From positions 32,001-96,000 of the forward strand of contig CAWHBU010000003.1 of NCBI GenBank assembly GCA_963827685.1: a stretch of DNA of 64,000 nucleotides. The letters are read 5' to 3'. Below are positions 10,491 to 26,071 of the stretch, one piece after another; position 1 is the first letter of the stretch, and each line of letters opens with the position of its first letter. A program made the translations under genes and the position numbers. Source of the DNA: an uncultured delta proteobacterium. Its GTDB lineage: Bacteria > Desulfobacterota > BSN033 > UBA1163. The notes beneath the pieces are model-generated. The model did not search any database and was not told where the DNA came from. It was given only the letters and a program-made list of their open reading frames with translations.

Positions 10491-10581
10491 ATAACCATGT
10501 AATGGATGTTCACTATTTTAATCCAACGGGTGCCTTCCCACAACACTCAGATGTCAAAATATATTTTTGTTATACAAATTA

Positions 10582-10699
10582 TGCAATTTTGGTGCCCCCC
10601 TAAAAATATATTGTTTTAATCAACTAACTATTTGAGTTAATAAGGATTTTTTGGTGTATCGAAACACAAGTGGCGGACGATAAATGACACTTTTTGTCA
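10582..10699 (-). promoter_or_regulatory. sigma54-type promoter (-24/-12) with upstream palindromic operator
   Basis: Minus strand GGCACCAAAATTGCA (GG-N10-GC) at 10582..10596; TGACA-N5-TGTCA at 10685..10699; duplicated at 13388..13505. Confidence 0.7.
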
Positions 10700-10965
10700 A
10701 TTCGGATTGTACTGGTATTTTGATCCCTGAGTGAGGGGTGCGAAAGGTTGATCCTCGGGCTCCCACGATTTGGCAGGAATGCTTCCAAAACGTTATCAAG
10801 TCGATAAGACCCGACCACGGGCGGATTGTTAAAATGGAATGGTTTAGTTCGGGTAAGAACCTACCAAGCATGCTCAAACAAGTCCGCAAGAGCAATGCTA
10901 AGGCAGCCCCATGACCTCGTGGAAGAAATCATATAATAAAGGCTTCTGGAGGTGGTACCCGAAAG

Positions 10966-13367
10966 TCAGTTTGAAGTTTCACTATCGATGGCCTGAGAGT
11001 AGCGCTGGTAGGTATCATGCCCACTCTGCTTAGCATTATACATTGCCTTGTCAGCACGGCTCACCAGGGTATCGACATCCACGCCGTCATCGGGGTAGAT
11101 CGCAATCCCGATACTGGTGCTGATAGAAACGTCATGGCCATCGAGGAAAAAGGGCTGTCGGAGGGCATATAGAACAGCTTGAGCAATGGTGACTGCGTCC
11201 TCCCCCTGATCTATATCAGGCAATAACAGCAAAAATTCATCCCCCCCCATACGAGCGACCGTATCGGTTTTGCGCACAAGGTCTGTTAATCGGTTGCCGA
11301 CGGCATTCAACAGCCCGTCTCCTGCATCATGGCCCAGCGTATCATTAACTTCTTTGAACCGATCCAAGTCAAGGAATATCACAGCCAGCTTCTTGTGCAC
11401 TCGCTGGGCTTGAGCCATCGCTACGCTGAAACGGTCTTTAAACAACATCCGGTTGGGCAGGCCGGTCAAAAGGTCGTGGGTGGCCTTGTAAGCAAGTTCC
11501 TCCTCCGTCCGCTTACGCTCGGTAACGTCGGACAACATCACAATGACCCTCCCATCATCTAAAAATGTCAGCTTGAACTCTATTTCCTTTACCTCCCCAT
11601 CCTTGCAAACAACACTCCAAACCCTATCAACCCCTTTGCGAGGAGTAGCATCCTCCTTCCATATGGCGATTATCTTATGCCGGTATTCCGGGTCAGGAAA
11701 AGCATTACGGAGCCATTCTCTCCCGGTAGGAACATCCTTTATGGTATAACCGGTGATGGCGGTAAATTCAGGATTGATATAGAGAAACGTGTCATCCGCA
11801 TCGATCAAGAGCGCACCATAGGGTTCTTTTTGCAAGATGGAGAAAAAGGTCTCCCGCTCCTGCTGTAATACTCTCTCAAACTGCTTGCGCTCGGTGATGT
11901 CCCGTGCAATCCCTCTAAACCCTATCGGGTTACCTGATGCATCTTTTCGTAACGATACAGATGTCTCAATGTATCTCTTGGTCCCATCTTTTCTTATAAT
12001 CTCATAATCATATCCTCTGTGAGGTTTCCCTGTCCTGTAGACTTGATTAAAACCTTGAAACAGTTTCTTAGCGTTCTCTCGGTCTGTATACTGCCGGTTA
12101 CTCATACCCATCAATTCCTCTTTGGGGTACCCAAATATTCGGCACATCGAGTCGTTGAAAAAGGTGAAGTTACCGGCAAGATCAACTTCGCAATAACCCT
12201 CTTCGATGCTTTCAAGAATGGTTCGATATTTCTCCTCACTTTGGCGTAGCGCCTCCTCGGCTTGCTTGCGCTCGGTGATGTCGTGAATGATGGAGTACAA
12301 TAGTTGTTTGCCACGCATGAAAAGCGGGCCACTGTTGACCTCGACGTCCCGGATCTGACCATTCGCCAGCCGATGCTGATAGTGAAAATGGTTTTGCTGC
12401 TCGGTCAGAGCACGTTGCATCTCGGTCTTGACCTCCTCGGCCGTCAGGGTGTTGATATCCGTCATCTTAAGCTTGAGGATCTTTTCATAGGGGTAGCCAT
12501 AGAAAACGCAGGCCCCTAAGTTGGCATCCACAATCGTCGCTGTTTCCGGATCGATCATCAGCATGGCCGCCTGATTCTTCTTAAACAGGCTGTGATAGCG
12601 TGCCTCGCTTTCGTGCAATTCTTTCTCAGCCCGCCGGAGCGCAGTGATGTCCTGCATCATGCCGATCATACGAATCGCTTTTCCCGGCCCACCGGTCATG
12701 AAATTTCCGCGGTCGTGGACCCAGCGATAGGCGCCGTCCTTATGAGGGAAGCGGTATTGCGCGTCAAAGGGTGTCAGATATTTTTCTGCAATCTTTAACA
12801 TCCGAAGGACCTTTTCCCGATCCTCCGGATGGATCATCTGCTCCCATTGGGCAATTCCTCCCCGCATCTCATCGGGGGAATATCCCAGTACCTGTTCGAG
12901 GCAGTCGCCCCACATCATGTCGCCCGTGCTGACATCGCACTCGTACGCGAGCTGTCCAGAGGCTGCAAACAGCAGCTCATAGCGGGTCTTCCAGGCGGCC
13001 ATCTCCTCTTCGGCTCTTTCGCGTCTTGTTCTGTGGACTTGATTAAGAGATTGAAACACTTTCTTTCCGTTCTCTTCATCCGTATATTGCCGGTCATTCA
13101 TGCCCATCAATGCCTCTCTTGGGTACCCATGGATTCGGCACATGGATCGTTGAAAAAGGGGAAGTTGCCCGCAAGGTCTACTTCGTAATAACCCTCTCCG
13201 ATGCTTTCAAGAACGGTTCGACATTTCTCCTCACTCTCCCACAACACCTGCTTAACCTGGTTGTCATAGGTTTCAAATTCTTCTAACTCACCAATCCGTT
13301 GACGCAGTGCTGTCAATTCACGGGTGAGCTGATCTTTTGTTTTTTCTCTATCTCTCATTCTATTCAC
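10966..13367 (-). pseudogene. multi-PAS GGDEF diguanylate cyclase, paralog of 8145..10490, with 1-bp frameshift near 13145
   Basis: N-terminal frame (...GNFPFFND) and frame 10966..13143 (MCRIHGYP) join as NDSMCRI if one base is restored; ARMGGDEF is intact; could also be expressed from 13143. Confidence 0.8.
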
Positions 13368-13387
13368 ATAAAGGTATATTTTTATCA

Positions 13388-13505
13388 TGCAATTTTGGTG
13401 CCCTCCTAAATTTATATTGTTTTAATGAACTAACTATTTAAATTAAAAAGGATTTTGGGGTGGATCAAAAACCACATAGCGGGCAACAAATGACACTTTT
13501 TGTCA
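13388..13505 (-). promoter_or_regulatory. second copy of sigma54-type promoter and TGACA-N5-TGTCA operator
   Basis: Identical GGCACCAAAATTGCA and TGACACTTTTTGTCA with the same 103-bp offset as in copy 1. Confidence 0.7.
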
Positions 13506-13661
13506 ATACGGATTGTGCAGGTATTCTTCATGATTCAAGGTCAGTTGGGACTCAGTGAGGTCTTTTCCTATTAATTCAACGCCAGTCCTTTCCCTTTTAC
13601 CTTTTGACCTTGAATTTTTAGGCTTAGTTATTAAATTTAAATAAGACAGGAGGTGTTAATA

Positions 13662-13781
13662 ATGAAAAAAGGTGATAAGAAAGCCAAAGCGAAAAAAACA
13701 AACACACCTGCTTTGTATGATTGCTGTTGGTATGAGCCTTCTTACAGTGATCTTTGCTGTGGTGGGGTTTGCTGTTGCTGA
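13662..13781 (+). CDS. 39-aa Lys-rich/Cys-rich peptide, absent from the ORF track
   Basis: Strong SD AGGAGGTG; MKKGDKKAKAKKTNTPALYDCCWYEPSYSDLCCGGVCCC-TGA. Confidence 0.65.
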   Translation: MKKGDKKAKAKKTNTPALYDCCWYEPSYSDLCCGGVCCC

Positions 13782-13911
13782 CAGGCAGTGAGAATAAAAT
13801 GGTTTCGGTATTTGGAGATAATGCTTTCACTTTCAATATTCTTTCGAGACCATGATTAGAGATCACGGACTTTGGCCTGACCAGGAATCTACATTGTTTA
13901 ACGGGTTCTGA

Positions 13912-14241
13912 CTACAGCCTTTCCATCTCAAAACTATATCGAGATGGATACTCTAAGATCCAGACGAAAGGCACGAGAAGAAAGATACCTCCTATCAAAG
14001 CCGGAATCGAAAGTTTTTCCCATTCGATATAGCCGTTGAAGTCTTTGTAACCCTCTTTTTTTAGAGTCACCGTCTTCACTGTCCCAGCCACTGCTTTATC
14101 TGTATAAAAATGAGGTGTTTCTCCCACGACCTTTCCGTCCACTTGTAACTTGGCCCCTGGCGGATTGGATTTTATTAAGGTCGTGCTTGCACACCCAATG
14201 AGAAAAAAGAACGCCATGGTTAATACAGTTGCCTTTCTCAT
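13912..14241 (-). CDS. PEGA-domain lipoprotein
   Basis: LIGC lipobox; IKSNPPGAKLQVDGKVVGETP...LKKEGY. Confidence 0.88.
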   Translation of the reverse strand: MRKATVLTMAFFFLIGCASTTLIKSNPPGAKLQVDGKVVGETPHFYTDKAVAGTVKTVTLKKEGYKDFNGYIEWEKLSIPALIGGIFLLVPFVWILEYPSRYSFEMERL

Positions 14242-14335
14242 TGTTCCTCCCCTTAAATAATATCTATTTTCATCCTTATCCCCCGGTTAAACCGATTTTC
14301 CGTCCGGATAGCTTGAAAGAGGATTTCCATTTTTT

Positions 14336-14368
14336 AGTGAAGCTCCCCTCCCACAGGGCGGGGCATTC
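14336..14368. repeat. IS200/IS605-end-like hairpin repeat
   Basis: Near-identical reverse complement of 1208..1239. Confidence 0.6.
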
Positions 14369-14504
14369 TGCAGCATTTTCGTAAAAGATTACTTGATTTG
14401 AATAAGCGGGTCAAGATGAATTTGAAGAGTGAAGAGCTAAAGTTTACGAAAAATATAATCATTTTAGGGAGGTCTGCGAAGGAACTAAATACCAAACAGG
14501 ATAT

Positions 14505-14536
14505 TAATAAAAAGGGGGGTACTTCTACCCCCCCTA
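14505..14536 (-). terminator. intrinsic terminator
   Basis: GGGGGGTA/TACCCCCC stem followed by a T-run on the minus strand, downstream of the 14581 stop. Confidence 0.7.
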
Positions 14537-14580
14537 AAACCTTTACGAACCCACTGACCTCTCTTTGATCAGAGAAAAGA

Positions 14581-15129
14581 TCACTTGCCTTTGAACTTGA
14601 CAATATATTTAGCTAAGGCCTCGCCATTTCTATCCATGGCGTATTCTACCGTATCATTGGCACCCGTAGAGGATGTCCTCAGATCGGTCTCATAGATGAC
14701 GTTGCCGCTTTCCTTGTCGATGAACTTGTAGTGGGCGGCGAAGTAAGCCGTACCGGTATGTTCTCCAAAGGGAACAAAGGACCGTCCTATACGCCTCCCC
14801 ACAGTAGGAGGGTTATACTCTTTGACCTCTCCCTTTATAATGAGCACTTTTCCCCCAGGCGGGGCCGCTTTACCCGCCTTCCCTCCTTCTTTAACGATTG
14901 TGTCAAAGAGGCTATATTTTTCATTATACCTCTTGATCTGGAAAACCGCCTTCTCAGCCATCTGCAAACCTGCCGACTCAGGTGCTGGCGAACCAGAAGG
15001 GACTTCAAGATCCTTAACGATCACTGCATTATAATCCTTGAGGATAGCCTCTGCCGCCATAATCGGGCTATTGGCTCCTAAAACCACTCCCAACACCAAA
15101 AAGATCGCAAAAAAATTCTTTACCTTCAT
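14581..15129 (-). CDS. exported protein, DUF4410-like
   Basis: SD GGAGG before MKVKNFF; signal peptide; LIIKGEVKEYNP...RRIG...FG pattern. Confidence 0.65.
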   Translation of the reverse strand: MKVKNFFAIFLVLGVVLGANSPIMAAEAILKDYNAVIVKDLEVPSGSPAPESAGLQMAEKAVFQIKRYNEKYSLFDTIVKEGGKAGKAAPPGGKVLIIKGEVKEYNPPTVGRRIGRSFVPFGEHTGTAYFAAHYKFIDKESGNVIYETDLRTSSTGANDTVEYAMDRNGEALAKYIVKFKGK

Positions 15130-15511
15130 AAATTTTCCTCCTTTGAGTGAATGATTACTAATTTTGTCCTTCTTTTTTAGTTCCGTCAATAGAATTCTTA
15201 ATTTTATTTTATCATATTTTCGGTGATTGATTTTCAATCCACTTGCCTTCTTCAAGAAAAATGTTTTGAATAGAAACCTTATTTTTTTCTCAGAGTTTAA
15301 GTAACTTTAACTTAACACATAAAATTGAAACATTAAAGGTTCATGGGATGGAAAAAGATCTGATAGCGGTATGACGCTGCCATCCACCCCGCCTCTATCA
15401 TCAACCGGACCCGTTCCTGGAAAATTGGAAAGTAGCAGGCCGGTTACAGGTCAGACAATGCTTTGACTCCTTTCGCACTTATCCATTTATGGCAGACGAC
15501 CTTAGAAAGTA

Positions 15512-15626
15512 GTCATTGCGAGGAGCGAAGCTCTGCACCGCATGGTGTAAAGGGGGAGCGATCCCGCCAAAGGCGGGACAATCCCATAAGATTGCTTCCT
15601 CCCGCAGGGCGGGATTCGCAATGACA
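15512..15626. repeat. palindromic element GTCATTGCGAGG...TCGCAATGAC with nested CCCGCC/GGCGGG hairpins
   Basis: Terminal inverted repeat GTCATTGCGA/TCGCAATGAC; internal CCCGCCAAAGGCGGG. Confidence 0.65.
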
Positions 15627-16390
15627 ATCTCAAAATGGAAATATACTTAAGTCGTTCACTATAGTTGCCCTAATTGCTCGTTCAGTTCATCCATCGTCCG
15701 CCGGATTTCGTCGGTCTGTCCATGGGCCTTGGACAGGAGGGACTCGATCGTAGCCAGCTCATCCTGAACATACTTCAAAGCTTGCTTCTTCATCTCCTCA
15801 ATAGCCTTATTGATCCGGTCTTCCCACTGGGCAGCGAGACGAGAAAGGTTTACCACCACGATGTTTGGAACCTGGTTTAAATAATGCCTCTCAAAGAGAC
15901 GTCGAAAAATAAACATGGGGATCAGGAACCAGAATAAATTGAGATGAAAATCAAAAGTCCGGCTTATTCTGATGTCCGGCTGATTGGGTTCGGTTACTTC
16001 GATCTTCCACTCTGTTTCTGCAAGTCGCAAGCCGAGCACTCTCTCTATGTTTTGGTTCAGAAGGGTCCTAAAAGCTTCCAGGGATCTGGAGAGACTGGCA
16101 TGGGCTTTTTTAAGAGTGCCCCAAAAATGCTTATGTTCAGTTTTTGACATATGACCGATCTCTTCGGCCAAGGTTTCCTTGAGCCAATTCTCATATTGGT
16201 CAGTAAGCTTCGAGAGATTCCCTTTCCACGAAGGCATCTCTTTGAGTAACATCTCCACCAACTTCTTCTTAAGATGAGGTTGATGAAATTTTCCCAGGTA
16301 ATTCTGGATGATCTCCCGGGTCTGTTGGGAATTTTCTCGAGTGATCAGGGTGATTTCCTGACGTATCAGCTCGTAATTCACTTTCTCATC

Positions 16391-17512
16391 TAGTATCTAA
16401 TTATATAAATAAGCGTACTTATTTTTAGGGTGAACTGATTTGACATAACGCTTGGTCCATTCAAACGGGGCTGCCTTTTCGTTATGGACGGAAATAAACT
16501 CATCGATCGCCTGGCGCAACTGTCGGACGCTTGTAAAGGAGGCGCCCCTCAAGGCATAGCGGCTCAGAAGACTGAACCAGATTTCGATCTGGTTCAGCCA
16601 GGAAGCATGTGTGGGCGTAAAATGAAAATGAACCTTCGGATGGCGTTTAATCCAATGATCCCTCTTCGGTCGATGAGTCTTCAAATTGTCCATAATCACA
16701 TGGATTTCCTCGTCCGGATGTTCGGCAACGATCTCGTTCATAAAATCCAGAAACTCCCGGCGACAACGGCGGCCGTAATGGCCCGCCTTCACTTGTCCCG
16801 TGGCCACATTCAAGGCTGCAAAGAGGGTACTCGTTCCATGCCGTCTATACTCATGGTTGGCTCCCGTCAGCGCCTTGCCATTGGGCAGTTTAAGCCACCC
16901 CTGAGCCCGTTCCAACGCCTGAATGGCTGGCTTCTCATCCATGCATACCACCATGGCGTTCTCAGGAGGATCCAGGTAAAGCCCAACAATATCAGCGGAC
17001 TTCCGTGCAAATTCAGGGTCCGTCGAAATACACCAACTGCGCCGTCTCTGAAGGCTAATCCCATACTTGCGCAACACCGCCCACACTTCATAATCCGGGA
17101 TGCTCGTCCTCTCCCCCAGAAGCCTTCCGTTCCACTGGGCATATCCCTTCGGAGGAGCTTCATCGATCTTGCGCAGAATTGTGTGTTCGGTCTCTGCGGT
17201 GTACTTACGTGGCTGCCCGGGGCGCGGTTCATCAAGCAAACCTGCCAACCCTTCTCTGACGAAACGGCTACGCCATTTGCAAACGCGTGCAACACGAGTC
17301 CTCAGCCTTTTGGCAATCTCCGTGTTACTCTGCCCTTCAGCACCCCAGAGAATAATTTGCGCCCTCTCCGCCATACGCTTGGGAGTGGTATGGGTTCGAA
17401 CCAATCGATCCAACTCAGCCCGTTGCTCGGGCTCCAACGTGATTTCTTTTGCTTTCCTGCTCATAATACAGGAAAGTTAGCATATTACGCTTATTATGTC
17501 AAGTAGATACTA
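16391..17512 (-). mobile_element. IS630-family insertion sequence
   Basis: TA at 16391-92 and 17511-12 within CTAG; imperfect IRs TAGTATCTA...ATAAGCGTA at both ends. Confidence 0.95.
16397..17464 (-). CDS. IS630 transposase
   Basis: HTH N-terminus; CMDEK, IMDN, HFTPTHASWLNQIEIWF DDE motifs. Confidence 0.95.
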   Translation of the reverse strand: MSRKAKEITLEPEQRAELDRLVRTHTTPKRMAERAQIILWGAEGQSNTEIAKRLRTRVARVCKWRSRFVREGLAGLLDEPRPGQPRKYTAETEHTILRKIDEAPPKGYAQWNGRLLGERTSIPDYEVWAVLRKYGISLQRRRSWCISTDPEFARKSADIVGLYLDPPENAMVVCMDEKPAIQALERAQGWLKLPNGKALTGANHEYRRHGTSTLFAALNVATGQVKAGHYGRRCRREFLDFMNEIVAEHPDEEIHVIMDNLKTHRPKRDHWIKRHPKVHFHFTPTHASWLNQIEIWFSLLSRYALRGASFTSVRQLRQAIDEFISVHNEKAAPFEWTKRYVKSVHPKNKYAYLYN

Positions 17513-18480
17513 GAATCTGCTTCCGGAGCTGCTCCCGGTCGCTGTCCGCCTGCAGGGATGTCTTTAATGCAATCTCTAAGTAACCCAGGCAGCCCTTGCC
17601 GATTGACCGGATCTTGTGTAGCAAGATGTTTTCAAACTCCTCTTCCCGGTGAGTGGAGAGCGGTCGAAAGACCTCGTTCTCCAGCCTTTGTTTCCATTGT
17701 TCGGTGTCCAACCGAGTTGAGTAAAGGAAAATGGGAAATTCCTCATGAAGCTCTTTTCGGAGTGCGGTTTGGAAAAAATGGAGTACTTCTTTTTGTTGTT
17801 CAGGGGAGAGGAGGTCGGTCTTGGTCAGGAGGAGAACAATCTTGGGGGTATGCTTCCGTAAATCGCGGATGAGTTGCAAGTCGTTTTCCGCCAGAGGGCG
17901 ATCCGAACTGATAGCCAGCAAAGCGGCGCCCACCTCCGGAAGCCAGTTTTCGGAGGTCTCCATGTGATATTTAAAGATACTCCCCAGACCTGGTGTGTCT
18001 ACGAACCGCAATCCGCTGTACTTTTCTAAGGAAGGGAGTTCTACATCGACCACTTCCACATTCTTTTGGTTGGCAGGATTTTTGGCCTCCGAGGTAAATT
18101 CTTCAATCGCTCCAATATCCACTTCGGTGTGCTGGCCGTCAAAATGACGCACAATGGCTCTTTCTCCTTTCCCATATTGCACACGGGTGATCGTGGTAGT
18201 AACGGGGATGACCCCGACTGGCAGAATATGTTCTCCGATTAGGCTGTTTAGGAAAGAACTTTTCCCGGACTTAAATTCCCCGAGGATAGCTACATCTATC
18301 AGTTGATCTTGTTGAAGAAGATTTTCGCAGGCTTCGATCTGGCGGTTCAGGGAGACGATATGAAACTGATCGCAGATCTCCTGAATTCGGGACAGCAGAG
18401 CTTGATAGGTATGTGTGAAAGAATCAAGGGGTGCATCTTTTGTCGCTAAGTTCATAAAAAAACTCCTTCAGGTTCTCCCT

Positions 18481-18528
18481 GCAGGAGTCATCAGCCTCAA
18501 CGGCGGTTATTGGGTGAACTCCATCACC
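18481..18528 (-). promoter_or_regulatory. fluoride (crcB-class) riboswitch upstream of the dynamin-like gene
   Basis: GGUGAUGGAGUUCACC-CAAUAACC-GCCGUUGAGGC-UGAUGACUCCUGC; P1, P2 and pseudoknot GGAGU/ACUCC; downstream terminator overlaps the SD. Confidence 0.92.
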
Positions 18529-18609
18529 TTTTTAATCCATATTAACAATCTCTAAGAACTTGTGTCAAGTTTTTACAGTGTTTTCACGGTATATCACTTT
18601 CTTACTGCC

Positions 18610-19422
18610 TTAAATGCATGTTCTTGAATATTCAATCTCCTCTAACAAAAGCAAGCCCGACACCGCATGGAATGTGCTCTCAATAAATGGAAAGCTGATA
18701 GGAGCTCTACCGAACCCCCCACCTTTGGTCTGACAGCTAAGAATATATTTCCGGCAGAGTTCTGTCTGGACAGGTGAAGAACCGAGCTTTGACAGAATCT
18801 CAAGGGCACAATAGGTGTTCTCCATATAGGAAGTAGTATCAGGATAGAATCCAAATCCCCCATCTCCATTCTGACAGAGTTGAACCCATTTAATGATTTC
18901 TCGCCTGTCGAAGTCTATGCCGTGATTCAACAGGATTGAAACCTTCTTTCTCAGGGTTTGCAAATTATCCTTTGGATGAAACTGAAGATAAGATAAAGAT
19001 TGGTGAGAATGTGGAGGTCCGTTAAGAAGTTTCTGAATCTCATCGGAAAAGTACTGAGCGTCGAGCACTTGAAATCTTGCCCAATCCCTCTCGAGAAGTT
19101 CGGTCAACAGAGGAGGGAAATCAATATCCAAAAAGAGATGAAGATAGACAAGCATGTAGATTGCCCTTGGGAAACCGACTTCCTTCCAACCGATATTCTT
19201 CAGGTAATTCCCGGTATTGTTCCGATCTACATCCACATCCAGGAATTGTAATATTCGAACGGCATAGTAGGTGTCTTCAATGTCGGGATAAAGTTCAGGG
19301 GCAAAGCTAAACCCTCCTTCCTTCTTCTCCCGATCTCTCAAATACCGGATGACCCTTGAGAGATCAAGCAGCCGACTCACCCCTCCAATTTCTTTTCTTG
19401 ATCCTTCAAGACCCTCGTTCAT
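18610..19422 (-). CDS. prenyltransferase/squalene-cyclase (alpha-alpha barrel) repeat protein
   Basis: Three repeats: EKKEGGFSF..DTYYA, CQNGDGGFGF..NTYCA, CQTKGGGFGR..STFHA. Confidence 0.85.
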   Translation of the reverse strand: MNEGLEGSRKEIGGVSRLLDLSRVIRYLRDREKKEGGFSFAPELYPDIEDTYYAVRILQFLDVDVDRNNTGNYLKNIGWKEVGFPRAIYMLVYLHLFLDIDFPPLLTELLERDWARFQVLDAQYFSDEIQKLLNGPPHSHQSLSYLQFHPKDNLQTLRKKVSILLNHGIDFDRREIIKWVQLCQNGDGGFGFYPDTTSYMENTYCALEILSKLGSSPVQTELCRKYILSCQTKGGGFGRAPISFPFIESTFHAVSGLLLLEEIEYSRTCI

Positions 19423-19483
19423 TTTCCGTGATCCTTATCGTTTTCAAAGATCCTCAAATAAAAAAACTTCTACCAGTAACCCA

Positions 19484-19540
19484 GTAGAAGTTATCAATCC
19501 TGTCTCAATAAAAGGACGGTTAAAGGCGAACCTCATCGCC
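19484..19540 (-). promoter_or_regulatory. fluoride riboswitch, intercistronic
   Basis: GGCGAUGAGGUUCGCC-UUUAACC-GUCCU..AGGAU-UGAUAACUUCUAC, followed by terminator AACUUCUAC/GUAGAAGUU and a U-run. Confidence 0.92.
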
Positions 19541-19577
19541 TCTGCCAATTAGTCTTCTGATGATGACCACTAAAGTC

Positions 19578-19838
19578 TTACGCTCTTTCTTCCTCCACTT
19601 CTCCAGTTTCGAATAAACACTCATCGCGTTCATAGTCATCCATCTGTGCAGCTCTTATTGATTCCCAACCCTGACGAAGATCGGGTGGTGAGACTTCTGC
19701 AATTTTCTGAGATAGTTCATCTCCGATGATTAGCTTTGTGAGTGAGATTACTGCCCGAGCTGCATGATCTGCCTGCTCTAAGTCTTTCAAATCAGCCATT
19801 TTCATCACAGCCTCAAGAAACTCTTTCCTCGTTTTCAT
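19578..19838 (-). CDS. DUF2267-like small protein (86 aa)
   Basis: SD GGAGGTG; EFLEAV...ADHAARAVI..L...I.......IAEVSPPDLRQGW pattern. Confidence 0.7.
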   Translation of the reverse strand: MKTRKEFLEAVMKMADLKDLEQADHAARAVISLTKLIIGDELSQKIAEVSPPDLRQGWESIRAAQMDDYERDECLFETGEVEEERA

Positions 19839-19890
19839 AACATCACCTCCTTTCTCCTCCCAAAATAAAAAAACTTCTACCAGGTAACCA

Positions 19891-19947
19891 GTAGAAGTCA
19901 TCAGTCCCCGATAAGAGGGGGGACATTTAATGGCGAACTTCATCGCC
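19891..19947 (-). promoter_or_regulatory. fluoride riboswitch upstream of the DUF2267-like gene
   Basis: GGCGAUGAAGUUCGCC-AUUAAAU-GUCCCC..GGGGAC-UGAUGACUUCUAC plus terminator; TTGACT-N17-AATAAT promoter-like sequence upstream. Confidence 0.92.
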
Positions 19948-20190
19948 GAGGCTCTGAGGTTAAAAATATTATTATCCAAAAAAATATTTAAGTCAATATT
20001 TTGATGAAAAACTCGGTCACCTAATGCCTTTTTTCACTTTCATTCCGAGGTCATTTAACTTGTAATCGGTATTCTTATTTTATTGACCTTTGTGATGAAG
20101 GTTAAACCGCAACAAAACTTAGTGATTTCAAAATATTTGACTATATTGCATAACTTTTCCGCTCTATCCTCGAACTACCTAAAATTTCCC

Positions 20191-20219
20191 TTGACAAAAA
20201 AAGTCTATTATTTTAGCAT
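20191..20219 (+). promoter_or_regulatory. sigma70-type promoter of the Wood-Ljungdahl cluster
   Basis: TTGACA-N17-TAGCAT. Confidence 0.55.
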
Positions 20220-20426
20220 GCCCATCGATATTGTGATTTTGGCCACATAAAGAATTTGACTAAAAATCCAGTTATTGTAACCGTTAAGAATCATCTTTCC
20301 ACAATCAAAAGAAGAGAAAGGGGGGATTGTTTAATTCCAAACCAAAATTCTTTGTTATTTGATAGATCGGAGTGTTTTAGGGAAAAAATTCAAAATAATT
20401 TTAGAAAGAAAGGGGGAGTAAGAAAC

Positions 20427-22214
20427 ATGGGTTTCAACATTTCAAAAAAGTATAATGAGGCGGACCCAAGAAAGCTTCCAGATTGGCAGGTTGCGGATAT
20501 AGCTGAAGAAACAATGCCCACTGTCGCCGAGTGGCAGGACAAATTGGGTCTCAAGAAGGACGAAATCATCCCGATGGGGAGGTTATGCAAGCTCGATTTC
20601 ATGAAGATTATTGATCGACTCAAAAGTAGGCCAGATGGAAAGTATATAGAAGTCACAGCCATTACTCCAACTCCGTTAGGGGAAGGAAAGACGACAACCT
20701 CTATGGGCTTAATGGAGGGATTAGGCAAAAGAGGAAAGAATGTCGGTGGTTGTATCCGCCAGCCTTCAGGCGGACCGACGATGAATATCAAGGGTACGGC
20801 TGCAGGAGGAGGAAAAGCCCTTCTCATCCCGATGACTGAATTTTCTCTCGGCCTAACCGGTGATATCAATGACATCACCAATGCCCACAACCTGGCAATG
20901 GTCGCTCTGAATGCTAGGATGCAACACGAACGAAACTATGACGATGCTGAACTCGCCAAGAGGAAACTCAAACGGCTCGATATTGACCCCGCCAACATCG
21001 AGATGGGCTGGGTCATGGATTATTGCGCCCAGGGTTTGCGGAACATAATCATGGGTCTTGGGGGCAAGATGGATGGTTTTCTCATGCAATCCAAATTTGG
21101 CATTACAGTGAGTTCGGAGCTAATGGCTATCCTTTCTATTGTGCGAGATCTGAAGGATTTACGGGAGAGGCTTGGAAAGATTGTCGTTGCCTATGATAAG
21201 AAAGGGAAGCCTGTCACCACTACAGACCTCGAAGTGGCAGGGGCCATGTGTGCATGGATGCGGAATACCATCAATCCTACTTTGATGATGACCACAGAAT
21301 ATCAGCCCTGTCTGGTTCATGCCGGTCCTTTTGCCAACATCGCTGTGGGCCAGTCTTCCATTATTGGCGACAGAATTGGTCTAAAGATGTTTGACTACCA
21401 TGTGACCGAGAGCGGTTTTGCTGCGGATATTGGCTTTGAGAAGTTCTGGAATGTGAAATGTCGGTTGAGCGGTTTAGTTCCCAATGTTTCAATACTGACG
21501 GCTACGATCAGGGCTCTAAAGATGCATGGCGGTGGGCCTAAGGTCGTGGCAGGACTGCCCATTCCTGAAGAATACACGAAGGAGAACTTGGCCCTTTTGG
21601 AGAAAGGGATCGTCAATATGACTCACCTGATCGGGGTGATCAAGAAATCAGGAATCAGTCCGGTCGTCTGTATCAATGCCTTCCACACCGATACGAAAGA
21701 CGAAATTGCAATGGTCCGAAAATATGCCGAGCAAGCAGGAGCGCGAGTTGCCCTTTCTGAGCACTGGCTCAAAGGAGGCGATGGAGCCCTTGAGCTGGCC
21801 GATGTGGTCATGGAGGCTTGCAAAGATAAACCCAATCTCAAATTTCTCTACCCGCTGGAGATGCCACTCAGACAACGGGTTGAGACAGTTGCCAAAGAAG
21901 TCTACGGAGCGGCTGGGGTCTCCTGGACACCCGATGCTGAAGCCAAAGCCAAACGGTTTGAAGCCGACCCAGCATTGAAGGATTTCAACACTATGATGGT
22001 AAAGACCCATTTGAGCCTGACTCATGATCCAGCTATCAAAGGAGTACCCAAGGGTTGGGTACTCCCGGTTCGTGATGTTTTAATCTTTGCCGGTGCAAAG
22101 TTCCTCTGCCCGATGACAGGCATGATCAGCTTGATGCCAGGAACCAGCTCTGATCCCGCGTTTAGAAGGGTAGATGTTGATGTGAATACCGGCAAAGTAA
22201 CGGGGCTTTTCTAA
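20427..22214 (+). CDS. fhs: formate--tetrahydrofolate ligase
   Basis: [39 protein letters not shown] motifs; SD GGGGGAG. Confidence 0.97.
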
Positions 22215-22236
22215 GAATAAGACTTCGATCCTCATA

Positions 22237-22281
22237 CTCCCCCCTCTCCCCCCTTTAAATAAATGGGGGAGAGGGGGGAGA
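22237..22281. repeat. C-rich/G-rich hairpin
   Basis: CTCCCCCTCTCCCCC-TTTAAATAAAT-GGGGGAGAGGGGGGAG; related elements at 55917..55975 and 60092..60186. Confidence 0.6.
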
Positions 22282-22345
22282 TTTAAAATTCCCAGTCCCG
22301 CCCCTATCGAAAATGAGGCGGGACTGAGTTATAATAAATTTATTC

Positions 22346-24361
22346 ATGCCGAAGCATAATGTAACTTTCCTACCCAGCGAAAGAAGGATTTCAGTAGATG
22401 AGGACGAGAACCTCCTTCAAGCCGCTATGGAGGCAGGAATTCATATCAATGCCTCTTGCGGTGGAAGTGCAACCTGTGGAAAGTGTAAAGTCAAGATCCT
22501 AAAGGGAGTGGTTGATTCTCCAAAACATCCAAAACTCACCCAGTGGGAATATGATCAAGGATTTCGTCTTGCCTGTTTGACACCGATTCGAGATGATCTC
22601 GATGTCGAGATCCCCATTGAATCACAGGTTGACAGATCTGTCCTTGCCCTCAAAGGTGATCGAGGGGCTCATAAATACCTCCTCTCTCCTCAGGATATCT
22701 ACCAACTCGTTAAAGGGTGGGATGTAGATCCATCGGTATTCAAAAGATATGTCCAACTCGACCCTCCTACTCTTAAGGATAATGTGAGCGACCTCACCCG
22801 TCTGATCAATGCCCTGGATCGGCAGCATGGCATTGAAGGGATTTCTGCTGACTTCCGTGTGATCATGAAGTTGAGTCGCATCCTTCGAGAATCGGATTGG
22901 AAGGTCACGGCTACGCTGGTTCTAACGAAAAAGGGCTATAAATTAGTCAATGTGGAACCTGGAGACAACACCCATCAAAACTATTCGATCGTTTTGGACA
23001 TTGGAACCACGACGATCTTTGGGCAACTTCTCGACCTCAATGGATGCGTGGTCTATGCCTGTCCCGGCGGCCTTTGTGATGGGTCCACCCTCTTCGCCTT
23101 AGCCGAAGCCTCGGATTACAATGCCCAGATCAGTTATGGAGAGGACGTCATCACTCGGATTGTCTATTCCCAAAGGCCTGGAGGACTGAAAAAAATGCAG
23201 GAGGTCGTTGTCTCCACCATCAACAAAATCATCCAGGAATTGCTCCAAATGAGCAAAATTGATCGATCCCTGATCTCCCATCTGGTGATTGCTGGCAATA
23301 CCACGATGACCCAACTCCTTTTAGGACTGGATCCAAAATATATTCGAGAAGCCCCTTATGTTCCAACAGCCAACTTCATCCCTCCGGTGAGGGCCGTCCA
23401 CCTGGGAATCGATATCGGCGATCATGTCCATGTCTATATCTTTCCGATGGTGGCAAGCTACGTAGGCGGAGATATTGTGGCAGGGATCTTGGGATCTGGA
23501 GTTTTTCAAAGAGAACCCCTCACGCTTTATATGGACATCGGCACCAATGGAGAGATTGTACTCGGAAACAAGGATTGGCTGGCCAGCGTCTCCTGCTCTG
23601 CCGGCCCTGCCTTTGAAGGCGCGGGAATTAAATTCGGGATGAGGGCGACCCGCGGAGCCATTGAAGAGGTCAGCATCAACCCTCGAACTTATGAACCAAT
23701 GATCCTCACCATTGGGAGGACAAAGCCCATCGGCATCTGCGGGTCGGGCCTGATTGACTCGGTGGCGGAGTTTTTGGAAACAGGGATGATCGACCAGAAT
23801 GGGAAATTCCGAAGAGACCTCCCTACAGATCGCGTTCGAATGGGACCGGACGGTTACGAATATGTCCTGGCGCGAAAAGAGGAGACTCTCATCCACGAAG
23901 ACATCGTTCTGACCGAGATTGATGTTGAAAATCTAATCCGCACTAAAGCGGCTATCTATGCCGGCTGTAAAGTTTTGTTGAGTAGTGTGGGATTGGATTT
24001 TAAGGATCTTGAGCAGATCATCATCGCCGGTGGATTTGGCCGCCATCTCGATTTAGAAAAGGCGATTTTCATCGGTCTCTTACCAGAGATCGATATCGAA
24101 AAATTTATGTTCGTTGGCAATGGCTCCTTGTTGGGGGCAAGGCTTCTCTCCTTCTCTAAGAACCTCCTGAAAGAGACGGAGCGAATTGCTTTGATGATGA
24201 CGAACCTCGAATTGAGCAATCACCCGACTTTTATGAACGAATTCATTGCAGCGATGTTTCTCCCCCACACGGAGGTCTCTGCCTTCCCAAAAGTGATGGA
24301 AAGGCTCTATGGGATGAAAAGGCAAGTCCGATCGGAGAGGATGGTTGAAGGACGGCTTTGA
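22346..24361 (+). CDS. acsV: reductive activator of corrinoid protein (RACo/AcsV; 2Fe-2S + ASKHA)
   Basis: CGGSATCGKC..RLAC ferredoxin domain; DIGTTT, YVGGD, DIGTNGE, AGPAFEG, GICGSG. Confidence 0.93.
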   Translation: MPKHNVTFLPSERRISVDEDENLLQAAMEAGIHINASCGGSATCGKCKVKILKGVVDSPKHPKLTQWEYDQGFRLACLTPIRDDLDVEIPIESQVDRSVLALKGDRGAHKYLLSPQDIYQLVKGWDVDPSVFKRYVQLDPPTLKDNVSDLTRLINALDRQHGIEGISADFRVIMKLSRILRESDWKVTATLVLTKKGYKLVNVEPGDNTHQNYSIVLDIGTTTIFGQLLDLNGCVVYACPGGLCDGSTLFALAEASDYNAQISYGEDVITRIVYSQRPGGLKKMQEVVVSTINKIIQELLQMSKIDRSLISHLVIAGNTTMTQLLLGLDPKYIREAPYVPTANFIPPVRAVHLGIDIGDHVHVYIFPMVASYVGGDIVAGILGSGVFQREPLTLYMDIGTNGEIVLGNKDWLASVSCSAGPAFEGAGIKFGMRATRGAIEEVSINPRTYEPMILTIGRTKPIGICGSGLIDSVAEFLETGMIDQNGKFRRDLPTDRVRMGPDGYEYVLARKEETLIHEDIVLTEIDVENLIRTKAAIYAGCKVLLSSVGLDFKDLEQIIIAGGFGRHLDLEKAIFIGLLPEIDIEKFMFVGNGSLLGARLLSFSKNLLKETERIALMMTNLELSNHPTFMNEFIAAMFLPHTEVSAFPKVMERLYGMKRQVRSERMVEGRL

Positions 24362-25104
24362 GCTTTACGATTGCGGTTTCAGGAAAAGGAGGAACGGGCA
24401 AGACCACCCTGGCTGGAATGATCATCCGCTTTCTATTGGACAAAGGGAAAGGTCCGATTCTGGCAGTGGATGCAGATTCTAATTCGAACCTCAACGAGGT
24501 CTTGGGCGTGGAGATCGGATCCACCATTGGCGAAGCCCGTGAGATGATGAAGCAGGATGTCCCGGTTGGGATGACGAAGGACATCTGGTTTGAATATAAG
24601 GTCCAGGAAGCCCTGACCGAAGCTAAGGGATTTGATCTCATCGCGATGGGACGTCCGGAAGGCCCAGGTTGTTATTGTGCGGCAAATACTTTAGCGAGAA
24701 AATGTTTGGATCTTTTGACAGGAAATTATCAATACATCGTCATCGATAATGAAGCCGGGATGGAGCATTTCAGCCGGCTGACGACTCGAGATGTGGATCT
24801 TCTCTTCATCCTCTCGGATTCCAGCCAAAGGGGTATCTTGACCGCTTCTCGGATTCGAGACCTCATCCATGAACTGGATCTCCGGATCGTTCGCGAGGTG
24901 TTGGTCATCAACCGGGTTCAGGGTGAACCAGGGCCTGAAATCTATGAGGAAGTGAAAAAACAAGATCTCGATTTGGGAGGAATCCTCCCTGTCGATGAAG
25001 AGGTTTACCAATACGATTCTGAGGGCAAACCGACCTTTCAACTCCCTTTGGAGTCAAAGGCAGTTCAATCCGCCCGCCGCATCTTCGAGAAATACATTCA
25101 GTAA
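24358..25104 (+). CDS. cooC: CODH/ACS nickel-insertion ATPase CooC/AcsF
   Basis: GKGGTGKTT, GPGCYC, DNEAGMEHFSR. Confidence 0.95.
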   Translation: MSFTIAVSGKGGTGKTTLAGMIIRFLLDKGKGPILAVDADSNSNLNEVLGVEIGSTIGEAREMMKQDVPVGMTKDIWFEYKVQEALTEAKGFDLIAMGRPEGPGCYCAANTLARKCLDLLTGNYQYIVIDNEAGMEHFSRLTTRDVDLLFILSDSSQRGILTASRIRDLIHELDLRIVREVLVINRVQGEPGPEIYEEVKKQDLDLGGILPVDEEVYQYDSEGKPTFQLPLESKAVQSARRIFEKYIQ

Positions 25105-25180
25105 GGGAGGCGCGGAAGATTTTACGATTCACGAGACACGTGACACGGATCACGATATTTTAAGGGGGGAGGTAAAAAAG

Positions 25181-26071
25181 ATGACGGCAAAATTGATTAG
25201 TGGCAATGAAATCGCTCAACAGATTCGGGAGGAACTCAAGCAGGAAACAGCTCGACTCAAAGAAAAACACAATGTCGTCCCGGGCTTGGTGACCGTCCTC
25301 GTAGGCGAAAACCCTGCCTCGGTGAGTTATGTGACGGCAAAGCAGAAGACCTCCAAGGAGTTGGGGTTTTACTCGATTCAGGATAACCAACCTGCCACCA
25401 TTAAAGAAGAAGAATTGCTCAAATTGATCGACAAGTATAATAAGGATCCTAAGATTCACGGTATTTTGGTTCAGCTTCCTCTGCCCAAGCACATCAATGA
25501 AACAAGAATCCTTTATGCCATTGATCCAAAAAAGGATGTAGATGGATTCCATCCGGTCAATGTTGGGAAATTGATGATCGGCGAGGCGGATTATCTTCCC
25601 TGCACTCCAGCAGGAATTCAACAGCTTCTCATTCGAACCGGTGCGAAGATTGATGGTGCAGAGGTCGTGGTCGTGGGAAGATCGAACATCGTTGGAAAAC
25701 CCATTGCCAATATTCTTCTGCAAAAGCAGAAAGGGGCCAATGCAACGGTAACTATCTGCCATACCGGGACAAAGGATATGTCTTTTCATACAAGGAGAGC
25801 GGACATCCTCATTGTGGCTGCTGGAAAGCCCAAAGCGATTACGGCCGATATGGTGAAGGATGGGGCAGTCGTCATTGATGTAGGCGTCAATCGGATTGGA
25901 ATGACCCCCGAAGGAAAGGCCAAACTCTGCGGGGATGTTGACTTTGACGGGGTCAAGGAGAAGGCCAGTGCCATTACCCCAGTCCCTGGGGGAGTAGGAC
26001 CGATGACCATTACAATGCTGATGATGAATACAGTAAAGGCTGCCAAAGTGGCGGCAGGCATAACAAGTTAG
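25181..26071 (+). CDS. folD: methylene-THF dehydrogenase/cyclohydrolase
   Basis: HGILVQLPLP, KDVDGFHP, PCTPAG, GRSNIVGKP, TPVPGGVGPMT. Confidence 0.97.
   Translation: MTAKLISGNEIAQQIREELKQETARLKEKHNVVPGLVTVLVGENPASVSYVTAKQKTSKELGFYSIQDNQPATIKEEELLKLIDKYNKDPKIHGILVQLPLPKHINETRILYAIDPKKDVDGFHPVNVGKLMIGEADYLPCTPAGIQQLLIRTGAKIDGAEVVVVGRSNIVGKPIANILLQKQKGANATVTICHTGTKDMSFHTRRADILIVAAGKPKAITADMVKDGAVVIDVGVNRIGMTPEGKAKLCGDVDFDGVKEKASAITPVPGGVGPMTITMLMMNTVKAAKVAAGITS

Follow-up and report, generated by a model that had tools for sequence, protein, structure and literature searches.

Fluoride riboswitches precede a family of dynamin-like GTPase genes: analysis of a three-gene locus from an uncultured delta proteobacterium

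Background

Bacteria are currently thought to resist fluoride mainly by exporting it through Fluc (CrcB) or CLC-F proteins, with further contributions from pH homeostasis and from overproduction of the enzymes that fluoride poisons. We present an analysis of a locus within a 64,000-nucleotide stretch of DNA (here called the window; positions 32,001 to 96,000 of contig CAWHBU010000003.1, assembly GCA_963827685.1) from an uncultured delta proteobacterium of the Desulfobacterota, where three minus-strand genes, encoding a DUF2267-like protein (gene 1), a protein with a prenyltransferase-type fold (gene 2) and a dynamin-like GTPase (gene 3), are each preceded by a fluoride riboswitch of Rfam family RF01734. 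A preliminary description made from the sequence alone had proposed that the three genes form an uncharacterized fluoride-response system. Comparison of gene loci from many genomes lends good support to a more general conclusion, which is new here, namely that membership of the GTPase family in the fluoride regulon is widespread and spans many phyla.

On the RNA side the closest described systems are the crcB-motif regulons, such as those governed by the leaders of Bacillus cereus crcB and Pseudomonas syringae eriC(F), with which the locus shares the aptamer and the logic of an ON switch that competes with a terminator. The accessible part of a 2024 review of fluoride resistance names as riboswitch-associated genes those for exporters, Na+/H+ antiporters, pyrophosphatase and HAD phosphatases, as well as enolase, formate hydrogen lyase and chorismate mutase, and the genes given in the accessible part of the 2010 motif-discovery paper are mutS and those for K+ or Cl- transport and for formate hydrogen lyase. 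The genes controlled in the window are not among the associates named in that part of the review, and a word search of the full text of the review returned no dynamin, GTPase or prenyl. None of the 8.1 million open PubMed Central (PMC) papers and 0.36 million preprints that we searched joins the fluoride riboswitch with a dynamin (the supplementary gene lists of a 2012 study may hold the family unremarked), and we found no literature tying this riboswitch to DUF190 or, among the papers listed, to DUF2267 or, in the present sense, to a GTPase or a prenyltransferase. The locus also differs from the crcB-motif regulons in that no CrcB was found in the genome and in that its stacked cassettes each have a switch of their own, one of them intercistronic. 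The classic partners of those regulons, that is, enolase, the Na+/H+ exchanger, DUF190 and CrcB, do share operons with the GTPase in other lineages.

On the protein side the closest described system is IniA of mycobacteria. IniA has a role in membrane fission, and stress-linked membrane remodeling or repair has been proposed for both IniA and DynA. At about 560–600 amino acids (aa), with a GTPase domain and a helical stalk, IniA (PDB 6J72, 6J73) is the best structural match of the gene 3 product and is likewise a stress-induced bacterial dynamin (inducible by isoniazid). The two differ in sequence (16–17% identity), in structure (template modeling (TM) score 0.33–0.35) and in the inducer (cell-wall drugs versus a fluoride riboswitch), and no iniB or iniC partners are present here. 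Other bacterial dynamins, namely Nostoc BDLP, Campylobacter jejuni DLP1/DLP2 and Bacillus subtilis DynA, share with the gene 3 family the Dynamin_N domain, the G1–G4 motifs, the helical stalk and the hydrophobic tip. Unlike the known bacterial dynamins, the proteins considered here make up a separate family of ~550 aa, marked by a conserved C-terminal motif of its own and by a link to fluoride riboswitches that is undescribed for the known ones.

Results

Riboswitches and expression platforms

An Rfam scan of the whole window at gathering thresholds (34 bits for RF01734) returned exactly three matches, all of them RF01734 and all on the minus strand. Three matches of this family had been predicted in the preliminary description, and the segments it had marked lie inside those found here, which score 46.1–59.6 bits and cover positions 1–64 of the 64-position model in each case:

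19885–19956, minus strand: aptamer of riboswitch 1 (RS1), 48.6 bits, E = 2e-10
19478–19549, minus strand: aptamer of riboswitch 2 (RS2), intercistronic, 46.1 bits, E = 1.4e-9
18475–18537, minus strand: aptamer of riboswitch 3 (RS3), 59.6 bits, E = 5.3e-14

A permissive Rfam scan of positions 13000–20300 gave no further credible match. The assembly that holds the window comprises 5,228,624 bases in 14 contigs (94.5% complete, 8% contamination), and because a scan of the whole assembly found these three sites as its sole RF01734 matches, their clustering is far from chance. The riboswitches ahead of the GTPase gene in relatives from the same genus score 55–60 bits, comparable to RS3.

The covarying pseudoknot of the preliminary description is retained in an alignment of 22 riboswitches from the genus (the three of the window and 19 from the same island in relatives): the P1 stem and the pseudoknot, 10 pairs in all, are paired in 220 of 220 cells, and three pairs are altered on both sides; the second pseudoknot pair, for example, goes from A-U to G-C. 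A control with the 3' partners slid by 1–3 columns left only 42–60% of cells paired. As the 22 riboswitches are related, the pairing demonstrates consistency more than independent covariation.

Behind every aptamer stands a stable hairpin with a T-run, and the 3' pseudoknot strand of the aptamer doubles as the hairpin's 5' arm (overlap of 15 nucleotides (nt) at all three), in agreement with the earlier suggestion that the terminators are built from that strand. The fold z-scores of the three platforms range from -2.4 to -3.6. A scan for promoter consensus sequences, which reports consensus matches only, added two promoter-like sites:

19968–19996, minus strand: promoter-like site before RS1 (TTGACT, 17 nt, AATAAT; 10/12 consensus positions), ending 12 nt before the aptamer
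19862–19899, minus strand: terminator of RS1, 12-pair stem 19899–19872 followed by a T-run; fold z -2.4 for 19855–19915 and -3.5 for 19855–19956
19455–19492, minus strand: terminator of RS2, 12-pair stem 19492–19465 followed by a T-run; fold z -3.5
18539–18568, minus strand: promoter-like site before RS3 (TTGACA, 18 nt, TG-TAATAT; 10/12 consensus positions), ending 2 nt before the aptamer
18456–18489, minus strand: terminator of RS3, hairpin 18489–18461 followed by a U-run; fold of 18445–18505 at -21.2 kcal/mol, z -3.4

Judged from the sequence, the platforms are built as transcriptional ON switches usually are. In RS3 an AGGAG ribosome-binding site lies inside the 3' arm of the terminator, 7 nt ahead of the ATG at 18455, so that the hairpin would mask initiation of translation as well. 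RS1 and RS2 are closer to each other than either is to RS3, and the arms of their terminators have almost the same sequence, which points to an origin of this cassette through local duplication.

RS2 begins 28 nt past the stop codon of gene 1, and the consensus scan found no promoter-like site ahead of it. Given promoter-like sites at RS1 and RS3 and none at RS2, the likely transcription units are 1) promoter, RS1, gene 1, RS2, gene 2 and 2) promoter, RS3, gene 3. The assertion that every gene of the locus has its own riboswitch is true, with the reservations that RS2 is intercistronic without a promoter-like site of its own and that the third gene, as described next, is inactivated by an insertion sequence (IS).

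The interrupted GTPase gene

Gene 3 is split into two parts by an IS630-family element:

17513–18455, minus strand: N-terminal part of the dynamin-like GTPase (GTPase domain and start of the stalk), Dynamin_N at 87.5 bits against a cut-off of 27
16393–17510, minus strand: IS630-family element, transposase coding sequence 16397–17464 (NF033545, 248.8 bits against a cut-off of 100)
15659–16390, minus strand: C-terminal part of the GTPase (stalk and hydrophobic tip), 84% identical to the last 238 residues of the ortholog in the relative G010

The N-terminal part, whose open frame continues into the element to 17499, is 82% identical to residues 1–316 of the intact 565-aa ortholog of G010, and intact orthologs in relatives are 556–565 aa long. 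The element has terminal inverted repeats of 29 nt at 79% identity and is bordered by a duplicated TA target (16391–16392 and 17511–17512) within CTAG, the junctions having been aligned to intact genes; the reading frame of the GTPase is unbroken across the duplicated TA. Five copies of the element, listed as 100% identical, occur in the genome, which indicates that the insertion into the GTPase gene is recent. With gene 3 split, only genes 1 and 2 can still yield whole products. The element is oriented like the GTPase gene and lies downstream of RS3, an arrangement in which transcripts that pass the fluoride switch could extend through the transposase gene as well. Apart from gene 3 the genome has no strong Dynamin_N match.

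Linkage of the GTPase family to fluoride riboswitches

The intact ortholog matched 787 cluster representatives at E ≤1e-30 in a collection representing ~15 billion proteins, and many of these relatives are full-length proteins of ~550 aa with 28–62% identity. We aligned 38 of these relatives and, with the alignment as query, took the best 80 loci from contigs of one genome per species, of which 49 have an ortholog of ≥50% identity and 31 one of 36–41% identity. The loci were searched with our own covariance model, R1, for which the 22 riboswitches of the genus had served as input, and a riboswitch was counted as directly upstream if the R1 match lay on the coding strand and ≤400 nt before the GTPase gene. 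Relative to Rfam, R1 both misses and over-calls: L110 and one site in L093 were found by Rfam alone, and L104, L091, L092, L095, L107 and L109 by R1 alone.

Homologs neither linked to riboswitches nor co-located elsewhere had been named in the preliminary description as a ground for giving up its proposal; the survey instead found linkage in 48 of the 49 close and at least 18 of the 31 distant GTPase loci, and in 69 of 80 loci of gene 2 relatives. In the close group the riboswitch is directly upstream in all 48, at a median distance of ~70 nt, and the 49th locus starts at a contig end and so comes without upstream DNA. Two of the 49 belong to the genus of the window itself. When ten of the close loci were tested again with Rfam, all ten reached the gathering score at the same places. 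The close orthologs come from genomes labeled Syntrophales, Syntrophaceae, Smithella, Syntrophus, Syntrophorhabdus, Syntrophorhabdaceae and unclassified 'Deltaproteobacteria', together with one Spirochaetota genome.

Among the 31 distant loci a direct R1 match was found in 10, and RF01734 at the gathering score was present within the locus in 18 of the 25 that were scanned with Rfam; the remaining six, searched with R1 only, gave no match at E up to 0.01. The positive distant loci carry the labels Hungateiclostridiaceae, Syntrophomonas, Limnocylindria, Deferrimicrobiaceae, Actinomycetota, Verrucomicrobiia, Verrucomicrobiae, Bacteroidales, Bryobacteraceae and Solibacteraceae. Several of them have the GTPase as a later gene of an operon headed by a switch, as in L100, where the order is riboswitch, enolase, AAA_16, GTPase. 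In L092, L095 and L107 a switch found by R1 alone, below the Rfam gathering score, precedes a Na+/H+ exchanger, two DUF190 genes, AAA_16 and the GTPase.

The neighbors of the GTPase gene were characterized by a Pfam scan of 114 co-directional open reading frames (out of 174 candidates), comprising downstream genes and genes between the leader switch and the GTPase. The recurrent families are Enolase_C (12/114), Na_H_Exchanger (10/114), DUF190 and HIT (9/114 each), AAA_16 (8/114), Prenyltrans (5/114), MFS_1 and CRCB (4/114 each) and DUF6062 (2/114). Enolase stands immediately 3' of the GTPase gene in 10 loci, and DUF6062-like proteins recur behind AAA_16 or in fused forms. In five Syntrophales loci (L036, L040, L063, L069 and L075) a distant relative of the gene 2 product (21–24% identity) follows the GTPase or the enolase in the same operon.

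The relatives of gene 2 itself were surveyed in 80 metagenome loci, whose 69 positive members contain 154 riboswitch matches, all on the coding strand. The match lies ≤400 nt upstream of the gene in 41 of the 80, and many others have it ~770 nt upstream, leaving room for a small gene in between; the 11 loci without a match have <800 nt of upstream DNA. These loci are close relatives of one another (62–89% identical) and hence not independent.

We also considered whole genomes, taking as carriers 46 genomes with a close GTPase ortholog, which are mostly metagenome-assembled and for the most part of unknown completeness. RF01734 is present in 45 of the 46, and 22 have exactly one match. Since the switch precedes the GTPase gene at each such locus, the lone match is most likely that very switch.

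Three further observations were made at these loci. First, genes for HIT-domain proteins and for histidine phosphatases of the phosphoglycerate-mutase type recur 3' of the GTPase or enolase (L035, L039, L040, L049, L072 and others). Second, two loci labeled Solibacteraceae (L100, 5650–7713, and L106, 5208–7256, both minus strand) contain a second dynamin-like gene, of ~685 aa, placed tail-to-tail with the ortholog and with an RF01734 of its own upstream; this looks like a pair of dynamins under fluoride control and recalls the paired dynamins of other bacteria. Third, some larger proteins that group with the dynamin-like family (L056 and L099) contain DUF6062-like domains.

Predicted structure of the GTPase

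Residues G60, G65-K66-S67-S68, T87, T91, D154-T-P-G157, K213 and D215, which fall in the G1–G4 motifs (P-loop, switch threonine, DxxG and xKxD), are invariant in the 38 aligned sequences, and with its nucleotide-binding motifs invariant the family is expected to be active as a GTPase. An AlphaFold (AF2) model computed from the 38 sequences (predicted local distance difference test (pLDDT) 85.8, predicted TM score (pTM) 0.73) has a GTPase domain at approximately 54–245, long helices at 250–435 and 475–564, and between them a low-confidence loop (436–465) followed by a hydrophobic stretch, and thus has the form of a helical stalk with a predicted membrane-binding tip. A Foldseek comparison of the model with the PDB gave IniA (E = 6e-18) and Nostoc BDLP (E = 1.6e-17), followed by the C. 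jejuni DLP pair (to 4e-12), and a profile search gave the same dynamin families at E from 9e-28 to 6e-20 (IniA 5.6e-21).

An assignment to anti-phage defense of the LeoA type was considered and rejected: PADLOC matched only a P-loop stretch of the GTPase (residues 24–76, E = 9.3e-8). Two weak short PADLOC matches (E = 7.5e-5 and 2e-4) came from the AAA_16 protein; the scan covered six further proteins, and these gave none.

The products of genes 1 and 2

The two genes that remain whole are:

19578–19838, minus strand: gene 1, DUF2267-like protein of 86 aa, Pfam PF10025 at E = 1.9e-5
18610–19422, minus strand: gene 2, prenyltransferase-fold (alpha/alpha toroid repeat) protein of 270 aa, PF00432 at 61 bits against a cut-off of 26.5

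The family names given in the preliminary description hold for the Prenyltrans and Dynamin_N matches; the DUF2267 match, at 25.4 bits against a cut-off of 29.8 and covering profile positions 2–79 of 122, is below the threshold. Many relatives of gene 1 bear the precomputed family label, and from its sequence the protein is best called DUF2267-like. A total of 708 related proteins were found, the best 120 of which share 84–93% identity with it.

The best 120 relatives of the gene 2 product are 64–94% identical to it. Its AlphaFold model (30 sequences; pLDDT 87, pTM 0.87) is an all-helical, toroid-like structure of 12 helices, whose best Foldseek match is the beta subunit of RabGGTase (E = 4.6e-7, TM 0.41); the beta subunit of FTase is also among the best PDB matches. 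The protein shares PF00432 repeats and a toroid-like fold with prenyltransferase beta subunits and squalene-hopene cyclase (SHC) and differs from those enzymes in its length (270 aa versus 320–640), in the looseness of the fit (TM 0.41–0.43 to beta subunits and 0.55 to SHC, 0.41–0.55 overall, at a root mean square deviation of ~8 Å) and in that no prenyltransferase alpha-subunit gene is present at the locus. It scores 15–21 bits with NCBIfam cyclase models whose cut-offs are 323–851, and a protein atlas search returned generic prenyltransferase-repeat clusters only. 'Prenyltransferase' should accordingly be read as a label for the fold and not as an enzyme assignment. A simple hydropathy scan predicted no transmembrane segments in any of the three proteins of the locus.

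The island in the genus

RF01734 occurs in 8 of 14 other genomes of the genus, with 1–4 matches each, and is absent from the other six. In all five stretches from relatives that were examined the riboswitches sit in one island beside a formate-tetrahydrofolate ligase gene, and each type of riboswitch keeps to its own gene across relatives. In the near-complete relative G010 the island consists of 1) a riboswitch and the DUF2267-like gene, 2) a riboswitch, the gene for the toroid (gene 2) protein and DUF6062, 3) a riboswitch, a gene for a 376-aa protein without a family name and an AAA_16 NTPase, then an enolase on the opposite strand without a switch and, as its last members, a riboswitch with the intact GTPase gene and the gene of a secreted 182-aa protein. 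Other relatives vary this composition: G005 has an additional gene with a switch of its own, for a cysteine-rich protein of 190 aa, an RF01734 precedes the 182-aa gene in G006 and G012, G013 has a major facilitator superfamily (MFS) transporter after the toroid gene, and remnants of GTPase or DUF6062 genes occur in G012 and G006, the GTPase gene of G012 being retained only as a remnant.

By this comparison of gene orders the locus of the window is one fragment of an island of mosaic composition, with a separate riboswitch for every cassette. The proposed three-gene module thus survives in part: the families are linked elsewhere, in Syntrophales, and the set of three is not closed, since it belongs to an island that also includes DUF6062, the 376-aa protein, AAA_16, the 182-aa protein and MFS. 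Homologs of the island's MFS transporter and AAA_16 protein were not found in the genome of the window (one query each), nor was DUF190. With its newly broken GTPase gene and without several of the cassettes, the island is partly decayed in this genome.

The last island gene kept in the window lies beyond the C-terminal part of the GTPase:

14581–15129, minus strand: secreted protein of 182 aa with a signal-peptide-like N-terminus, no Pfam match, 77% identical to the G010 protein

No riboswitch lies ahead of it in a search extended to E = 5. The spacer of ~530 nt between the GTPase gene and this gene (15130–15658) contains G+C-rich inverted repeats. DUF6062 (L024, 5866–6504) and the 190-aa protein of G005 (L026, 4341–4913) are both rich in CxxC and have a zinc-binding-like appearance. 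Control of enolase by a riboswitch within the genus was considered and rejected, the adjacent enolase of G010, G006, G013 and G014 being on the opposite strand and without an aptamer; the enolase of the window's genome is on another contig.

Proposed function of the island

The data show the identity of the riboswitches, the build of their terminators, the conserved linkage of switch and gene, the protein folds (as models) and the break by the IS. The regulatory logic is well supported, and so is the place of these genes, the GTPase foremost, in a fluoride regulon; induction by fluoride in the cell and the role at the membrane are inferred. We consider the best explanation of the data as a whole, with a probability of roughly 0.6, to be that the locus forms part of a stress island inducible by fluoride, whose GTPase probably acts at the membrane. 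Without fluoride, the 3' pseudoknot strand of each aptamer would pair into the terminator and transcription would halt before the gene; with fluoride bound, the pseudoknot would hold the 3' strand, the terminator could not form and the gene would be transcribed, and at RS3 the same hairpin would, in the absence of the ligand, also bury the ribosome-binding site. One transcript would carry RS1, the DUF2267-like gene, RS2 and the prenyltransferase-fold gene and the other RS3 and the GTPase of the IniA/BDLP type. The GTPase would most likely remodel or repair the cytoplasmic membrane under stress by fluoride (as hydrogen fluoride, HF) without itself moving fluoride, and the two small soluble proteins may be accessory factors specific to the clade. 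A response at the level of the membrane would fit reports, cited in the accessible part of the 2024 review, that in several bacteria fluoride switches on genes for envelope or membrane integrity.

Several points weigh against this explanation. The proposed membrane role is suggested by similarity of fold to IniA and BDLP, at 16–17% identity and TM 0.32–0.35 for a predicted model; 7 of the 25 distant loci scanned with Rfam are without RF01734 at the gathering score; the DUF2267 match of gene 1 is sub-threshold and the structural match of gene 2 to prenyltransferases weak; and the broken GTPase gene, together with the six of 14 genomes of the genus that lack RF01734, indicates that the island is dispensable. 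Moreover, the sharing of operons by the GTPase with enolase or the Na+/H+ exchanger would fit equally well with the GTPase being one more enzyme that fluoride poisons.

The last point leads to the foremost rival, which we nevertheless judge unlikely: the GTPase, and in relatives the AAA_16 NTPase, would be inhibited by fluoride-metal complexes that mimic the gamma-phosphate, and the switch would raise the dose of a protein with a housekeeping role at the membrane. Dynamin-family GTPases are known to be trapped by GDP-aluminofluoride. Enolase, a classic target of fluoride, is the commonest operon partner of the GTPase (12/114, and directly 3' in 10 loci), the gene in the window is the only strong Dynamin_N match of its genome, and the accessible part of the 2024 review sets out a logic of overproduction for fluoride-hit enolase and phosphatases. 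However, the sole copy of a housekeeping gene would not be expected behind a terminator switch that is OFF by default, nor would it be expected to be lost or broken in many relatives, and the lone RF01734 in 22 of the 46 carriers suggests that the switched operon is a primary response to fluoride.

If a fluoride-inducible membrane function of the GTPase is correct, the family would add a membrane-level arm to fluoride resistance, and bacterial dynamins would gain a defined, simple chemical inducer, which they have largely lacked so far. Sediments, wetlands and digesters are the habitats of the carriers, which are anaerobes and include syntrophs, and fluoride tolerance in such places matters for the breakdown of organofluorine compounds.

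Fluoride exporters

The preliminary description had found no fluoride exporter in the window, which is correct, and for CrcB (PF02537) the absence extends to the whole genome (no match, with the same search positive in 11 of 14 control genomes), to 0 of 12 genomes of the genus and, at the cut-off, to 0 of 41 genomes sampled from the family. CrcB is present in 2 of the 46 carriers compared with 64 of 146 high-quality genomes sampled from the phylum; with carriers that are mostly metagenome-assembled and genomes that are related and so not independent, the depletion is suggestive and not a statistic. A CLC protein of any kind is present in 25 of the 46 carriers, and 21 have neither CrcB nor CLC. 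Six genomes of the phylum sample have a full-length ortholog of the GTPase at E ≤1e-185, one of which (G227) has CrcB.

The window's genome encodes two near-identical CLC paralogs of 600 and 606 aa and a fragment, all on another contig. Members of the CLC-F clade are short, lack CBS domains and have a distinct set of selectivity-filter motifs. Both full-length paralogs have a C-terminal tail of ~160 aa (CBS-tailed) and the motifs GKEGP and GVFAP, and a comparison with the motifs of CLC-F suggests that these proteins fall outside that clade. Their best PDB matches are to ClcA (1e-40), and none of the 43 matches is named as a fluoride CLC.

A bolder statement, which we put forward only tentatively, is that the dynamin-like family is a dedicated fluoride-stress effector with the AAA_16 NTPase, DUF6062 and the prenyltransferase-fold protein as recurrent partners, that it may protect the membrane independently of exporters, and that it could be the main riboswitch-controlled defense where Fluc and apparently CLC-F are lacking (this genus, Syntrophales, Syntrophorhabdales and others). 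The operons shared with Na+/H+ exchangers, enolase, DUF190 and sometimes CrcB indicate that the GTPase goes together with the classical regulon and need not substitute for export.

Such substitution is the content of a second rival, in which the GTPase and its toroid, AAA_16, DUF6062 or MFS partners would lower cytoplasmic fluoride by vesicle shedding, sequestration or an unrecognized transporter and so replace Fluc or CLC-F. The scarcity of CrcB in the genus, the family and the carriers relative to the phylum favors it, as do the 21 carriers without CrcB and CLC when set beside the accessible part of the 2024 review, which puts carriage of exporters above 85% of a reference genome set. We regard it as distinctly improbable, because the three proteins of the window have no predicted transmembrane segment and the window has no transporter, because the genomes compared are incomplete and related and CLC-F was judged by motifs only, and because CrcB shares the operon in 4 of the 114 neighbors, the GTPase of G227 working beside export. 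Least probable of all, and in our view very unlikely, is that the island is a decaying relic whose remaining cassettes contribute nothing to fitness: the split GTPase gene, the missing DUF6062, 376-aa and AAA_16 cassettes of G010 and G005, the missing switch before the 182-aa gene (present in G006 and G012) and the GTPase and DUF6062 remnants in G012 and G006 speak for it, but the three aptamers are well over threshold with intact terminators, both small genes are open and strongly conserved (84–93% and 64–94% identity in the best 120 relatives), and the identical IS copies make the break very recent.

Some exporter genes were seen close to dynamin-like genes or with unusual motifs. In G227 (contig C29, 51879–54271) the GTPase ortholog follows directly after CrcB, both on one strand, and in G244 (contig C12, 47246–48892) a more distant dynamin-like gene lies beside CrcB on the opposite strand. 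The two near-identical CLC copies of the window's genome (L004 and L005, contig C4, ~6.5 kb apart) are each followed by a gene for a membrane protein of ~285 aa; they have GHGTD in the place of the GSGIP serine motif of canonical CLCs, and a CLC of this type is common in genomes that carry the GTPase. L214 (G104, contig C292) encodes a short CLC homolog with GKIGP in place of the gating-glutamate motif GKEGP.

Neighboring genes

Two further gene groups were noted in the window. A cluster of the Wood-Ljungdahl type abuts the island at 20256–26071 and contains genes for formate-tetrahydrofolate ligase, a RACo-type activator, a CooC-like ATPase and FolD. At 8145–13143 on the minus strand are two neighboring large genes for diguanylate cyclases with PAS/GAF and GGDEF domains.

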